Under the pieces are notes generated by a model. The model did no database searches. It was not told where the DNA came from and saw only the letters and a list, made by a program, of their open reading frames with translations. From an uncultured Gammaproteobacteria bacterium (GTDB lineage Bacteria > Patescibacteriota > Microgenomatia > UBA8517), in assembly GCA_964431555.1 (NCBI GenBank), contig CAYSJW010000015.1, positions 41,573 through 105,572 on the forward strand: a stretch of 64,000 nucleotides of DNA, in the 5' to 3' direction. The position numbers were made by a program, and so were the translations under genes. This document shows, one piece after another, positions 59,421-63,284 of this stretch; the first letter of the stretch is position 1, and every line of letters begins with the position of its first letter.

Positions 59421-61249
59421 TTTCCACCAAAATCATTTTCTCCAAGATCAAGAACCTCTGGTTTAATAACTAATGTCATTCTTCCTTTTTCTCGATCAAG
59501 ATCAACATAACGAACGAAAAACACTACCAAAGCTTCAACCCCATGACTTCTTATCCCAGATTCTGTTTCATACCCAACTGCAAAACCAATATAATTACCC
59601 AATGATTGATCGTTTTTCAATTCTATAGGAATAATACTACCATCATCACCTACACTACTAATTTCTATCAATGGCTGACCGTTCGTATCCAATCCCGAAA
59701 ATGTAATGTCAAAACGTCCAAAATCTAAATCTTCCAATACTGTTGCAGTTGCTGATACATTGATCTGGCCCCAAAACCGATCATTTTCAACATTAATGAG
59801 ATCTTTAAAAGTAGTACCTTTAGGTACTCTCAAATTAGCACTTATTTTTTCCCCATTTTTAATTGGAATCTCAACCCATGGATTCGGTATTTTACTAGCT
59901 TCTAGAAAATCAATAAACGGCAGCATAATATTTCCTGATTCATCACCCATTTTGTACAAATTATCCAAAAATTTGTCTCTTAATCTCAAGGAAGTGAATT
60001 CTGACAAGCTCATATCAGTTGAATGCGTATTCTTTTTTTCTACCCATTCGCCACAATTCTCAGATAAAGTATAAGCTCCAACTCCTGCGGGAGTTGCTAA
60101 TATTACAACAAACCCTATAAAGGGCAGGTAGTTAATTACAGCTTGGCTGGCTTGGCTAGCATTAAATATTGCACGATAAACTTCTTTTGGCATTCGAGTA
60201 TAAATATTTTCAGTATAAGTTAAGATACCAGGATCCTTAACAAACTTCACATTTGGGTATAAATTCCTTAAATATTCCAACGTTTTTGAATTGATCCCTT
60301 CTGGATAATATATTGCATTGATTCTATTATGAGGAATAAATCCAGCGCTTAGAATTGCATTCGGATTATTTTGATTTTTAGTATATACGACCTCAACTTC
60401 CTCCAAAGCATACTCGACCAAAACTGGAGTTCTCATAGAATCTTGTATAATACCCACTTGACTCTTTGTATATACTTTAGTAATTTCATCCCATAAATCA
60501 ACTCTTTGCTTATTAAATTGAATTTGCCATAACAAATTATCATAAAGTACTTTTTGTTCTTGAGTTGCATAACCTCCATCAATAAGAGGTTTAAGTTTTG
60601 CTATTTCACCTTCTAAATCAAGCACTACTTTAGTTGCTAATTTCGGATCCCACAATCTGCCTTTTACTATTTTATTGGCATAATCAACTGCCGTTTGATA
60701 CCCCACACCTAATGGAAGATCCTCACTTCGCTGAGTAGCTACCCATAGTCCACTAGGATTTATATTTCTAGTATTTGCATAATTTGGTATCTTAACATTG
60801 TGCCTGGTAAAAATTCCACCCGGGAATTTTTCAGATATTCTTTCAAAAGACGAAAGCCCTTCAAAATTAGTCACAACTTCTTCGGGGTATCCCAACTCCT
60901 TCAACACCTTTCCACTAATAAGACTCCATACTACCGTTCCATGATGAGAAGGAATTAACCCTCTATTTCGTATTTCTTGTATTGATCTTAAAGCTTCCGG
61001 AGGAATCCCTTCAATGGTTTTAGGCAACTCAGACAAACCACTACCAATGGGGTTCTCGGGTGGTTTAACTCCATTGCACGCCGCAAGGACAGCTGCTCCT
61101 AATGATGTGGCAGCTACTTTTAAAAATTCTCTTCTAGTTACTGGATTTTGAGGGTTTTGACCAGTTGTTTCAAGTTCATTTCCAACAGTTGGAAATTCTT
61201 GATTTGTGTTTACTCGATTCGTGTTTAGTCCTTTTATTTCTTTACTCAT
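59417..61249 (-). CDS. putative Tat-secreted lipoprotein (610 aa), paralog A
   Basis: The N-terminus ...TRREFLKVAATSLGAAVLAAC has a twin-arginine motif (RREFLK), a hydrophobic region and a lipobox-like LAAC. The mature part is unrecognised. Confidence 0.55.
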   Translation of the reverse strand: MSKEIKGLNTNRVNTNQEFPTVGNELETTGQNPQNPVTRREFLKVAATSLGAAVLAACNGVKPPENPIGSGLSELPKTIEGIPPEALRSIQEIRNRGLIPSHHGTVVWSLISGKVLKELGYPEEVVTNFEGLSSFERISEKFPGGIFTRHNVKIPNYANTRNINPSGLWVATQRSEDLPLGVGYQTAVDYANKIVKGRLWDPKLATKVVLDLEGEIAKLKPLIDGGYATQEQKVLYDNLLWQIQFNKQRVDLWDEITKVYTKSQVGIIQDSMRTPVLVEYALEEVEVVYTKNQNNPNAILSAGFIPHNRINAIYYPEGINSKTLEYLRNLYPNVKFVKDPGILTYTENIYTRMPKEVYRAIFNASQASQAVINYLPFIGFVVILATPAGVGAYTLSENCGEWVEKKNTHSTDMSLSEFTSLRLRDKFLDNLYKMGDESGNIMLPFIDFLEASKIPNPWVEIPIKNGEKISANLRVPKGTTFKDLINVENDRFWGQINVSATATVLEDLDFGRFDITFSGLDTNGQPLIEISSVGDDGSIIPIELKNDQSLGNYIGFAVGYETESGIRSHGVEALVVFFVRYVDLDREKGRMTLVIKPEVLDLGENDFGGN

Positions 61250-61435
61250 AATTAACTCATAAAAAAACCTCCTTAGAGTTCAAGAAGGTTTGAAATAAAA
61301 AAATTCAAACCTCCTTATTTTTCAAGGAGGAGAAAATTGCAATTAATTTTGAGATATTTTTCAAAGATAAATAACCTCATAATTAAAAATTAAAAAACTA
61401 TTTGGTATTTTAAATAACTATAAGATATTTGTCAA
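61073..61435 (-). repeat. duplicated 5' expression/secretion cassette, copy 1 (promoter + leader + signal peptide to the lipobox Cys)
   Basis: Near-identical to 62930-63284 except for one ~20-bp divergent patch. Identity ends exactly after the LAAC codons. Confidence 0.8.
61407..61435 (-). promoter_or_regulatory. sigma70-like promoter TTGACA-17 bp-TAAAAT for lipoprotein paralog A (identical copy at 63256-63284 for paralog B)
   Basis: Read on the minus strand: ttgaca aatatcttatagttatt taaaat. It lies about 150 nt upstream of the start codon. Confidence 0.5.
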
Positions 61436-61510
61436 CGACAGATATTCTTAAACAAAATTATTTTACTTACATCACCACATTTTAATATATACTCCACATA
61501 TGATAAAATT

Positions 61511-61792
61511 ATGAAAATGTCTAAAGAAATAAATGCTAAATGCCCCTGGTTGGATGGAAATGGATGTTGTACCAGGCAAGCTTGTGCGCTAGCATCACTA
61601 AAAAGAACTGAAACAAACAAAAACAATCCCCTTCAATTTGATCCAGAATATTTAAATAATATGATAAACCAACTGCCTTCCCAAGCTTATTTAGATGATG
61701 ATGAACAAATTATTTGCCTTGTAGCCGATAATCCAAAATTACAGAAAACATGTTCCGGCTATATAACAATACCCAAAACCAACTCACACTAG
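61511..61792 (+). CDS. hypothetical small Cys-rich protein
   Basis: 93-aa ORF (CPWLDGNGCCTRQAC...) between the two paralog loci. Weak. Confidence 0.3.
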   Translation: MKMSKEINAKCPWLDGNGCCTRQACALASLKRTETNKNNPLQFDPEYLNNMINQLPSQAYLDDDEQIICLVADNPKLQKTCSGYITIPKTNSH

Positions 61793-61992
61793 ACAAATTA
61801 AATAACCAGATATCTTAATATCTTTTATTTCCCAAAAAGTTTCTTTATTGACCTCACAATATACTAATTTCTTGAAACCATCAATATTTCCATAATTCAT
61901 TTCTGCTTGATAAAAAAAGTAATTTAAAAGTAAAAGATTAGAAGTTAATTAACTTGTCCTGCTAACTTTTTAATTAAAAAATCTATAAACTC

Positions 61993-63099
61993 CTATTCTA
62001 TTATTATCACCGGCAAAGTTCTATCCCCTACAGTTTTTGGATCGATATAATAAGAATCGTAAGAACCAAAAGTATTTTTAATTTGATCCAAAGTCATGTG
62101 AATTATTTTTATTTTTTTGCCCAAACAATTTATTAAAGCAAGTTTTCGTGCATATAAATCAAAAGTATACTCTTCTTCGTCCAATACAGATTGCTCTGGT
62201 ATCACAACAACTCTTTTACTTATATCACAAGTATGTTCAATCAAATATCTAATATCAAGTATATTTGGAGCTATTAAAACAGCTTCATCAAACGGTTTTT
62301 TTAACTTAGATGGTTTAATCTCAAAAAGATCAAGTTTATAAAATGCCGCGAATGAAGTTTCCCTTATAGATGGCTCTACTCTACCCTGCAGATTTGGAAG
62401 AGAATCTGGATATTCTTTAAAAGGTACATAGTCTAAATCTACTGCTATTACTGTTCTTCCCTCGCGCAACTGAGATTGCTGCAGTGGGGATAACGTAGAC
62501 GAAGGACCCACATTTAAAACCAACTCTCTTCCATCATCAGAAGTAGCTTCAACCAAACCATATAATGATTCAAGAGCTTGCTCTCTATATCTATTAGGAT
62601 CACTAGAAAGATGAGCAGTCATATCATAGTAAGGAGTATTTTCAGCTTCACCACCAAAAATCTGGACTATTTTTACTGCTGAACTTCCATACTTTCCCCA
62701 CCATTCTGCGGTTCTAACTGCACCCTCTATAGACTCTGGATTAATAAATAATACATATTCTTTTCCCATATTTCTTATTGCTTCATCTGGAGGGGGTGGA
62801 TTTAGTGGATTAAATCCCTGACGGCTACAAAAAGGGTTAGAACTAGAACCTATACCCTCACATAAACCTCTCAATGCTTCTTTAATCTTTTGTTCTAAAT
62901 TATCCTTGCCACCTCCTACATTACACGCCGCAAGGACAGTTCCTGGTCCAAAAAGGAAGGCTACTTTTAAAAATTCTCTTCTAGTAGTTACTGGATTTTG
63001 AGGGTTTTGACTAGTTGTTCCAAGTTCATTTCCAACAGTTGGAAATCCTTGATTTGTGTTTACTCGATTCGTGTTTAGTCCTTTTATTTCTTTACTCAT
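61993..63099 (-). CDS. putative Tat-secreted lipoprotein (368 aa), paralog B
   Basis: The N-terminal 58 aa are nearly identical to paralog A, including TTRREFLKVA...VLAAC. The mature part is unrelated to paralog A. Confidence 0.55.
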   Translation of the reverse strand: MSKEIKGLNTNRVNTNQGFPTVGNELGTTSQNPQNPVTTRREFLKVAFLFGPGTVLAACNVGGGKDNLEQKIKEALRGLCEGIGSSSNPFCSRQGFNPLNPPPPDEAIRNMGKEYVLFINPESIEGAVRTAEWWGKYGSSAVKIVQIFGGEAENTPYYDMTAHLSSDPNRYREQALESLYGLVEATSDDGRELVLNVGPSSTLSPLQQSQLREGRTVIAVDLDYVPFKEYPDSLPNLQGRVEPSIRETSFAAFYKLDLFEIKPSKLKKPFDEAVLIAPNILDIRYLIEHTCDISKRVVVIPEQSVLDEEEYTFDLYARKLALINCLGKKIKIIHMTLDQIKNTFGSYDSYYIDPKTVGDRTLPVIIIE

Positions 63100-63284
63100 A
63101 ATTAACTCATAAAAAAACCTCCTAATTTTAAGGAAGTTTGAAATAAAAAAAATTCAAACCTCCTTATTTTTCAAGGAGGAGAAAATTGCAATTAATTTTG
63201 AGATATTTTTCAAAGATAAATAACCTCATAATTAAAAATTAAAAAACTATTTGGTATTTTAAATAACTATAAGATATTTGTCAA
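62930..63284 (-). repeat. duplicated 5' expression/secretion cassette, copy 2
   Basis: See copy 1. It has the same promoter, leader hairpins, mini-ORF and signal peptide. Confidence 0.8.

Follow-up and report, generated by a model that had tools for sequence, protein, structure and literature searches.

Probable capture of a promoter, leader and signal-peptide module by an orphan gene from a neighbouring lipoprotein gene in an uncultivated hot-spring bacterium

Two neighbouring genes of an uncultivated bacterium from a hot-spring mat (about 34% GC), here called gene A and gene B, begin with almost the same DNA and continue into unrelated mature proteins. The question raised by this locus is how such a pair arises and whether it belongs to a system of surface variation. 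Both genes lie on the minus strand of a 64,000-nt stretch of contig CAYSJW010000015.1 (the window, that is, the whole stretch of DNA analysed, whose coordinates are used here unless another contig is named). A first reading of these letters without database searches (the sequence-only reading) compared the pair with the variable surface lipoproteins of Mycoplasma (Vlp/Vsa) and Borrelia (Vsp), and saw in it a hint of surface variation or cassette exchange. The comparisons presented below favour a different answer: the 5' module of gene A has probably been captured by gene B through a partial duplication, with ongoing gene conversion between the two copies. The gene pair is a small example of an already known pattern, not a surface-variation system.

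The shared block is a direct repeat, 61073-61435 versus 62920-63284, both on the minus strand, with 92.7% identity over 370 columns (E 8e-153, blastn against the 64-kb window); a repeat search of the window returned the same two blocks. Copy A (61073..61435) comprises the promoter, the leader and the signal-peptide coding sequence of gene A, and copy B (62920..63284) stands in front of gene B with the same boundaries. Each cassette is about 365 bp long, with the -35 hexamer at its 5' end and, at its 3' end, the codon of the lipobox Cys plus 4 nt (AATG; Cys-Asn in the protein). In the MAFFT alignment similarity sets in exactly at TTGACA (61435 and 63284), upstream of which the two loci are unrelated, and from that point the copies are identical at 133 of 133 nt, covering the promoter and the AU-rich leader; they agree at the synonymous sites of the 58 signal-peptide codons too. 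The identity is broken by a strongly divergent patch of about 20 nt in the hydrophobic h-region (61093..61112, minus strand, in copy A), which reads AATSLGAA in A and AFLFGPGT in B and tells the two copies apart. On its 3' side both copies carry an identical 16-nt block over V-L-A-A-C, and at the end of the cassette the identity drops from about 100% to background within a few bases.

The sequence-only reading had recognised both this near-identical block and the modular layout in which a single promoter-leader-signal block fronts two unrelated mature domains, and these points are borne out. Some details needed correction. Its second block started at 62930 instead of 62920; its statement that identity stops exactly after the Cys holds to within 4 nt but passes over the h-region patch; the 58 codons given for the signal peptide are right for gene A (Cys at residue 58) and not for gene B, in which one extra Thr codon places the Cys at residue 59; and the mature domains, described as 550 and 310 aa, have exact sizes of 552 and 309 aa.

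Gene A (59417..61249, minus strand) encodes 610 aa and gene B (61993..63099, minus strand) 368 aa. BLASTP of one protein against the other aligned residues 1-60 only, and a profile hidden Markov model (HMM) of the gene A family gave no match to the mature part of gene B even at E 1000 with the filters off, so that this sensitive comparison agrees with the claim of unrelated mature parts. The same result bears on the idea that the whole of gene A was duplicated in tandem, after which the mature part diverged and shrank while selection or conversion held the 5' end. Such an origin would suit two nearby genes in the same orientation, both of them lipoproteins, and conversion does act at their 5' end. 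However, the family profile misses gene B, the mature lengths and the predicted secondary-structure patterns differ, the open reading frame (ORF) that lies between the genes (orf93) has not been duplicated, and an identity step within a few bases is not expected from gradual decay. Whole-gene duplication is considered quite improbable.

What is known of the two mature parts is uneven. That of gene A belongs to a small uncharacterised lipoprotein family, of which an exhaustive phmmer search among 1.84 billion representatives found 17 homologue clusters, nearly all with a lipoprotein signal of their own; there was no Pfam match, and when the family alignment was searched in a word-indexed database the query alone was returned. 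It includes a helical region, in which one hydrophobic helix is conserved (about residues 367-392, counted from the start of gene A), and after this a C-terminal beta-sandwich, an order of domains that faintly recalls A-B toxins. An HGT motif, which has the form of the NAD-binding H-G-[ST] of ADP-ribosyltransferases, is invariant in gene A and its two closest homologues. Comparison of the gene A model with the PDB by Foldseek gave nothing with an E value below 0.07, and the PDB sequence-profile search gave no match; an ADP-ribosyltransferase-like fold of the mature domain is a tentative suggestion. The mature part of gene B has no homologue in a word-indexed set of 5.8 billion proteins, and gene B matched nothing in Pfam, NCBIfam, PHROGs, PADLOC, PDB sequences or a phage tblastn search. 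Its single-sequence AlphaFold 2 model (predicted local distance difference test, pLDDT, 45.6) is too poor for fold searching.

The direction of copying can be read from the orthologues of gene A. The closest homologue (P0005, 40% identity) lies on a 2.5-kb contig (L003), with a homologue of orf93 divergently upstream. Its promoter has 28 of 33 positions as in the cassette promoter (blastn 87% over 31 nt) and its leader forms a single hairpin, equivalent to the second of the two hairpins present in the cassettes. The next homologue (P0006, 33% identity) is found on contig CAZVJU010000012.1 (L004), which also carries rplK-rplA and the same Y1 transposase genes as the window. Its leader has both tandem hairpins and the identical string GGAGGTTTTTTTATG, with a similarity to the cassette leader of 76% over 88 nt by blastn (E 4e-10) and 84.7 bits by covariance model. 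The signal peptide of P0006, MTQEINRREILKAAGLTAAGLGLAAC, equals that of the window minus a 32-aa insert in its N-terminal n-region, and its h-region is closer to the gene A variant than to the gene B variant. Twin arginines and a lipobox are also carried by P0007 (read from an upstream ATG) and P0014. Promoter, hairpin leader and twin-arginine plus lipobox signal are thus retained in orthologues with 33-40% identity, and these comparisons show that the module belonged to gene A from the start; gene B, which has no homologue anywhere searched, received it.

Evidence for conversion comes from comparing the locus in three independent assemblies: the window, whose genes A and B match the NCBI entries P0001 and P0004, respectively; JGI 3300022548 (contig Ga0212092_1000030, L001); and ENA ERZ27245602 (contig k141_20140, L002). 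The three-way alignment spans 21 kb, of which 12 kb are common with the window. Outside the cassettes the whole 21 kb contain five single-base changes and one 21-nt insertion or deletion. Inside them there are about 30 differing sites in the gene A cassette of the JGI contig and 8 sites in the gene B cassette of the ENA contig (5 substitutions and one 3-nt deletion). In a six-cassette alignment all sites that discriminate the copies, from the T7/T8 tract of the leader through the h-region patch, are B-type in the JGI gene A cassette, and the A-type resumes with base 3 of the Cys codon. This gives a converted tract of 215 nt or more, whose 3' limit falls within the 16-nt lipobox block. The recombination breakpoint near the Cys codon that the sequence-only reading had proposed to look for in population data is found here. 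Gene B of the ENA contig is A-type over a short stretch (Gly30 and absence of the additional Thr), and it has four private non-synonymous substitutions within 50 nt (P36L, K45E, V46L and P52L; positions 10107-10155 of that contig). By their pattern in the alignment, the cassette differences among the assemblies are conversion-type mosaics. The exchanged part is the leader and a signal peptide that is cleaved off, so no surface variation would be generated.

Two places outside the cassettes also vary. The 21-nt insertion, present in JGI at window position 58482 in the rplK-rplA spacer, is composed of short repeats of the TAGTTG/TAGTGG kind, and is the only insertion or deletion polymorphism outside the cassettes. 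Three single-base differences between JGI and ENA fall within 29 nt (positions 8487-8515 of the JGI contig), and nowhere else in the 21 kb do differences cluster locally outside the cassettes; this place belongs to an ORF of 703 aa that lies upstream of gene B, past the end of the window.

An assembler can create or homogenise repeats, and the 133-nt perfect repeat is longer than the k used for the JGI assembly (SPAdes, k 21-77; PMC7490370). Besides, a contig of a fourth assembly (L012) breaks inside this repeat. Nevertheless, three independent assemblies, produced by different assemblers, all show the same two-copy layout with the same flanks, and the junctions to unique mature sequence lie within 16-20 nt of discriminating sites. 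The recombinant junction is probably backed by reads and not made by the assembly graph, because k-1 exceeds the 16 nt of the identity block at every k used, k = 21 included. An assembly artefact is scarcely credible as the source of the pattern.

Does the pair nevertheless work as a surface-variation system? In a system of the Vlp/Vsa/Vsp type, the 5' cassette would be a recombination anchor for swapping or phase-switching surface domains. Several features would suit it: a conserved 5' untranslated region (UTR) and signal peptide on unrelated mature parts, recombination between assemblies with a breakpoint at the lipobox, and the private substitutions of the ENA gene B, which suggest a wider pool of alleles. 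On the other hand, such systems consist of multigene families and here there are two copies. No third copy of the cassette was found by blastn in the 64-kb window, and no third or silent copy in about 20 kb of additional flank, about 84 kb being covered in all (the window, positions 1-9100 of L001 and positions 1-10000 of L005); nor does this region contain a promoterless copy. Against 5.8 billion proteins, full-length gene A retrieved gene A and gene B only, the latter through the signal peptide alone (E 3e-16). As this set includes the proteins of three assemblies of the window organism, and as gene B was found by its signal peptide alone, a third intact gene with that signal would have been seen, at least in those three assemblies. 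The wider search for further cassettes that had been proposed thus returned none, over about 84 kb or as protein. Exact 26-mer and 23-mer scans of genome and metagenome contig collections gave 0 matches, and of 200 metagenome stretches that fitted a pattern drawn from the signal-peptide alignment none was confirmed, but these collections evidently do not contain this genome and the result has no bearing on copy number.

Neither was a switching mechanism found. The locus does not consist of one expression site plus silent cassettes: in all three assemblies the two copies possess complete and identical promoters, spacer of 17 nt included. There is no repeat tract in the promoter spacer that would make it phase-variable, and no invertase adjoins the locus; the closest recombinase-like gene, for a Y1 transposase, is at a distance of 5 kb. 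Hardly any variation affects the mature domains: that of gene B is identical in the three assemblies and that of gene A differs at one residue. The exchanges observed alter the leader and the cleaved signal peptide and not the choice of the mature domain that is expressed. The surface-variation interpretation offered by the sequence-only reading is given up here as very improbable.

Three other candidates were set aside during these searches. The weak blastn/tblastn match of the RREFLK region at 3938-3976 is a chance match inside a serine hydroxymethyltransferase gene. A diversity-generating retroelement does not fit differences that are not adenine-specific and a repeat that lies at the 5' end and includes the promoter. 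Repeats of the repetitive extragenic palindrome type (REP/RAYT), considered in view of the Y1 transposase genes nearby, are discarded as the hairpins are not multicopy in the window.

The promoter and the leader of the cassette deserve separate attention. The putative sigma-70-type promoter TTGACA-17-TAAAAT, already pointed out in the sequence-only reading, is present in both copies (61407..61435 in copy A and 63256..63284 in copy B, minus strand, identical to each other) with 11 of 12 consensus matches, and these are the best promoter-like sites within 59-64 kb. The leader of about 150 nt that had been proposed is likewise confirmed in the alignment. By folding, it would form two tandem hairpins in which an anti-Shine-Dalgarno arm pairs with a Shine-Dalgarno (SD) sequence. 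Hairpin 1 (61310..61330 in copy A, 63159..63179 in copy B, minus strand) has in each copy the form CCTCCTT-gaaaaat-AAGGAGG followed by a U-rich run, with an equivalent in L004. Hairpin 2 (61265..61291, minus strand, in copy A) has the form AAACCTTCTT-gaactct-AAGGAGGTTT followed by U7, and would sequester the SD while resembling a terminator; it is kept in L003 and L004, and in copy B (63115..63139, minus strand) it reads AAACTTCCTT...TAGGAGGTTT. Its 5' arm varies between copies and orthologues (CCTTC, CTTCC, CCTCC), the pairing with GGAGG always being kept. Both hairpins carry a trailing U-run and both are flagged as terminator-like. The fold z-scores of the leader are -4.25 and -3.44, and two alternative pairings are predicted, a nested structure (-30.6 kcal/mol) and tandem local hairpins (-23.5 kcal/mol), with the SD sequestered in either.

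The SD has the right spacing (7 nt) for a mini upstream ORF (uORF) of two codons, ATG AGT TAA (61252..61260 in copy A, 63102..63110 in copy B, minus strand), but not for the main ATG, which is 18 nt from the SD and in copy A lies 2 nt past the stop of the uORF. An analogue exists in L004, where the TGA of a 4-codon uORF (9844-9858) overlaps the main ATG; taken together, these arrangements suggest coupling by termination and reinitiation. A 21-codon leader ORF (MRLFIFEKYLKINCNFLLLEK, about 61314-61379, minus strand) can also be drawn through the 5' arm of hairpin 1, with its stop in the loop and without an SD; L004 has a counterpart of 8 codons, initiated at TTG and also ending in loop 1. This leader ORF may be a chance product of AT-rich sequence.

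The leader core, made up of the two tandem anti-SD/SD hairpins with their U-runs and then GGAGGTTTTTTTATG, corresponds to 61252-61340 and 63102-63189 of the window (minus strand), 9767-9863 of L004 and, in part, about 556-600 of L003, and is kept across orthologues of 33-40% protein identity. It is more conserved than the coding sequence, and 3-4 distinct sequences of it are available. A hairpin with a U-run 5' of the start, alternative pairings and conservation in orthologues, the features of attenuating or SD-sequestering leaders, are all present, and no Rfam family matches this leader. Its role might be that of an attenuator, of a translational control element or of an mRNA stabiliser.

A covariance model of this leader found in L004 a second leader of the same tandem design (19622-19715, plus strand; 24.9 bits, E about 0.02), placed directly 5' of an unrelated 195-aa ORF without a signal peptide or a Pfam match. 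The tandem-hairpin leader may thus be a reusable regulatory module in this lineage, and gene B could have recruited it independently, not from gene A. Against such a recruitment, the identity between the two cassettes reaches far beyond the hairpins (133/133 nt and the synonymous sites of 58 codons), which implies recent common descent of the whole block, and no further copy of the leader besides cassettes A and B was found in the window with the covariance model. Independent recruitment of a lineage-wide leader is unlikely, though less so than the other alternatives considered above. The match of the model at 27834-27926 is an ordinary bidirectional terminator with an AAGGAGG/CCTCCTT stem, and the near-match to GGAGGTTTTTTTATG at 52144 is not the leader element.

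The coding portion of the cassette gives both proteins a common N-terminus, MSKEIKGLNTNRVNTNQ...TRREFLKVA...VLAAC. The signal peptide of gene A has 58 codons (61076..61249, minus strand), with a long n-region, TRREFLK, the h-region and the lipobox LAAC; that of gene B has 59 codons (62923..63099, minus strand) and the same motifs, with the h-region variant AFLFGPGT. T-R-R-E-F-L-K fits the canonical S/T-R-R-x-F-L-K with a moderately hydrophobic h-region behind it, and L-A-A-C fits the signal peptidase II pattern [LVI][ASTVI][GAS]C, a lipobox being present in most gene A homologues as well. The twin-arginine and lipobox signal claimed by the sequence-only reading is therefore canonical in its motifs in both proteins. 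With TIGR01409, an HMM for the twin-arginine translocation (Tat) signal, gene A reaches 15.8 bits, slightly less than the cut-off of 16.7, and gene B has no match; the Tat-signal region PF10399 matches gene A at E 9e-4, below its cut-off. Export of both lipoproteins by Tat is a prediction, strengthened because the twin arginines are conserved in homologues at 28-33% identity. The genes tatA, tatC, lgt and lspA were not found in the approximately 84 kb available. Tat has been reported in some classes of the candidate phyla radiation (CPR) (PMC9166423).

The n-region is unusually long (38 aa before the twin arginines) owing to a 32-aa insert rich in Asn, Thr, Gln and Pro relative to P0006 (MTQEIN-RREILK). 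The insert corresponds to residues 7-38 of the signal peptide (61136-61231, minus strand), and no source for it was found among the sequences compared. L004 also encodes, some 3 kb 5' of its gene A orthologue (5363-6685, plus strand), a further predicted Tat lipoprotein with a long n-region (SRREFLKTVPLVVLAGGALAC), which matches no Pfam family and bears no relation to gene B.

Among the systems described so far, the closest analogue is the Erp family of Borrelia burgdorferi (OspE/OspF/Elp), whose cp32 prophage genes share an 'upstream homology box' (UHB); this is an analogy, not a membership. In Erp/UHB, one promoter, leader and localisation module is found on many unrelated mature parts, and recombination is frequent (PMC10016077). 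As in the locus described here, the promoter, the leader peptide and the first mature residues stand in front of independent mature parts, and members recombine, here seen as conversion mosaics across assemblies; Erp genes frequently recombine their alleles and are co-expressed. They differ in forming a large family, with as many as 9 or more loci in a cell, carried by prophage plasmids, whereas there are two chromosomal genes here, in a position between rplA and rplJ that is not a cp32-like prophage locus. They also have a spirochaetal lipoprotein signal of the Sec type instead of a twin-arginine signal, and an operator that binds known regulators, while the shared non-coding part would here be a structured RNA leader. 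Neither gene has sequence similarity to any named family, and there is no homology to Erp.

The Vlp/Vsa proteins of Mycoplasma and the Vsp/Vlp proteins of relapsing-fever Borrelia also join a conserved 5' UTR and lipoprotein signal to divergent mature regions, and their 5' homology is a substrate for recombination. However, they have many copies, silent cassettes or phase-variable or invertible promoters, and a variable exposed domain, none of which was found here. In Streptomyces and haloarchaea, Tat-dependent lipoproteins carry a twin-arginine motif followed by a lipobox Cys; these have individual signal peptides and no duplicated DNA cassette, and the n-region of the present pair is unusually long by comparison. 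In the tandem lpl cluster of Staphylococcus aureus, homologous recombination within a conserved block inside the genes exchanges segments between neighbouring lipoprotein genes (Tsuru and Kobayashi 2008, PMC2568036). This cluster resembles the present pair in that evolutionary units and ORFs have different boundaries, but its genes are paralogues throughout and the conserved block is central, whereas here the 5' module alone is shared.

Capture of the gene A module by gene B, with ongoing conversion, remains the probable explanation. The comparisons above establish the duplication and its boundaries, its direction from A to B, the conversion mosaics and the lack of relation between the mature parts. 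A partial duplication, limited to the 5' end, would have set the module of gene A, a consensus-like sigma-70 promoter with a structured leader of about 150 nt and a 58-codon twin-arginine lipoprotein signal peptide, ahead of gene B, an ORF specific to the lineage and without relation to gene A, at a distance of 1.85 kb. Intrachromosomal gene conversion (homologous recombination leading to concerted evolution) would then keep the two copies alike. Both proteins would share a promoter, control at the level of the leader, and a route of export and lipid anchoring, and the orphan gene B would in this way have been given a front end for expression and export.

Several points weigh against this explanation. 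The private substitutions of the ENA gene B cannot come from either known copy, and may point to another allele or to an additional donor. Assemblies represent a population consensus, which makes haplotype phase uncertain across the 133 nt of perfect repeat. The cassette boundaries show neither a target-site duplication nor the ends of a mobile element. The copy count covers about 84 kb of a 149-kb contig, and silent or degenerate copies are possible elsewhere. Finally, promoter activity, leader function, Tat export and lipidation are inferred from sequence.

Three linked readings go further and, taken together, are rather unlikely. First, the leader could represent a kind of cis-regulatory RNA that has not been described before, present in an uncultivated lineage and recurring before another gene in L004. 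Second, it may control a predicted Tat-exported, lipid-anchored, ADP-ribosyltransferase-like effector, gene A, with orf93 as a conserved cytoplasmic partner. Third, copying and conversion of the module may let orphan genes such as gene B gain regulated surface display, in which case the signal-peptide region may be a recombination hot spot drawing on more than two alleles.

The small Cys-rich protein orf93 (61511..61792, plus strand) is divergent from gene A and is a conserved neighbour of its orthologues. It matches the neighbour in L003 by BLASTP at E 4e-15 and the neighbour in L004 at E 3e-4, in the latter with a different position and orientation. It has no signal peptide and could be a partner, a chaperone or an inhibitor of gene A.

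Gene A, orf93, gene B, the 703-aa ORF and a Ham1-like gene sit between rplA and rplJ. The secE-nusG-rplK-rplA-rplJ-rplL cluster (window 53344-64000 and positions 1-9100 of L001), otherwise conserved, is interrupted twice, the other interruption lying between nusG and rplK and containing a 313-aa ORF, a Y1 (IS200-like) transposase gene, a 541-aa methyltransferase gene and a 107-aa ORF. In L004, two Y1 transposase genes flank the gene A orthologue, and this contig shares with the window organism the rplK-rplA synteny, an extended ribosomal protein L1, the Y1 transposases, the gene A orthologue and the leader. The L1 protein, of 276-285 aa, carries a Lys/Glu-rich N-terminal extension of about 50-90 aa in both the window (58590-59420, plus strand) and L004 (13880-14737). 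The genes rplA and A are convergent and their 3' ends overlap by 4 nt.

For the biology of this organism, the locus offers a clean and datable case in which a gene without detectable relatives would have gained a front end for expression, export and lipid anchoring by a 365-bp copy from its neighbour, and in the population data gene conversion between the two cassettes is seen under way. The layout of a shared 5' module with an unrelated mature part, known from the spirochaete Erp genes, also arises on a chromosome and with a Tat-type signal. It should not be read as antigenic variation when the copies are two and the variation is confined to the part that is cleaved off. The hairpin and uORF leader and the lipoprotein family of gene A, with its possible ADP-ribosyltransferase fold, are leads for the study of uncultivated hot-spring bacteria.

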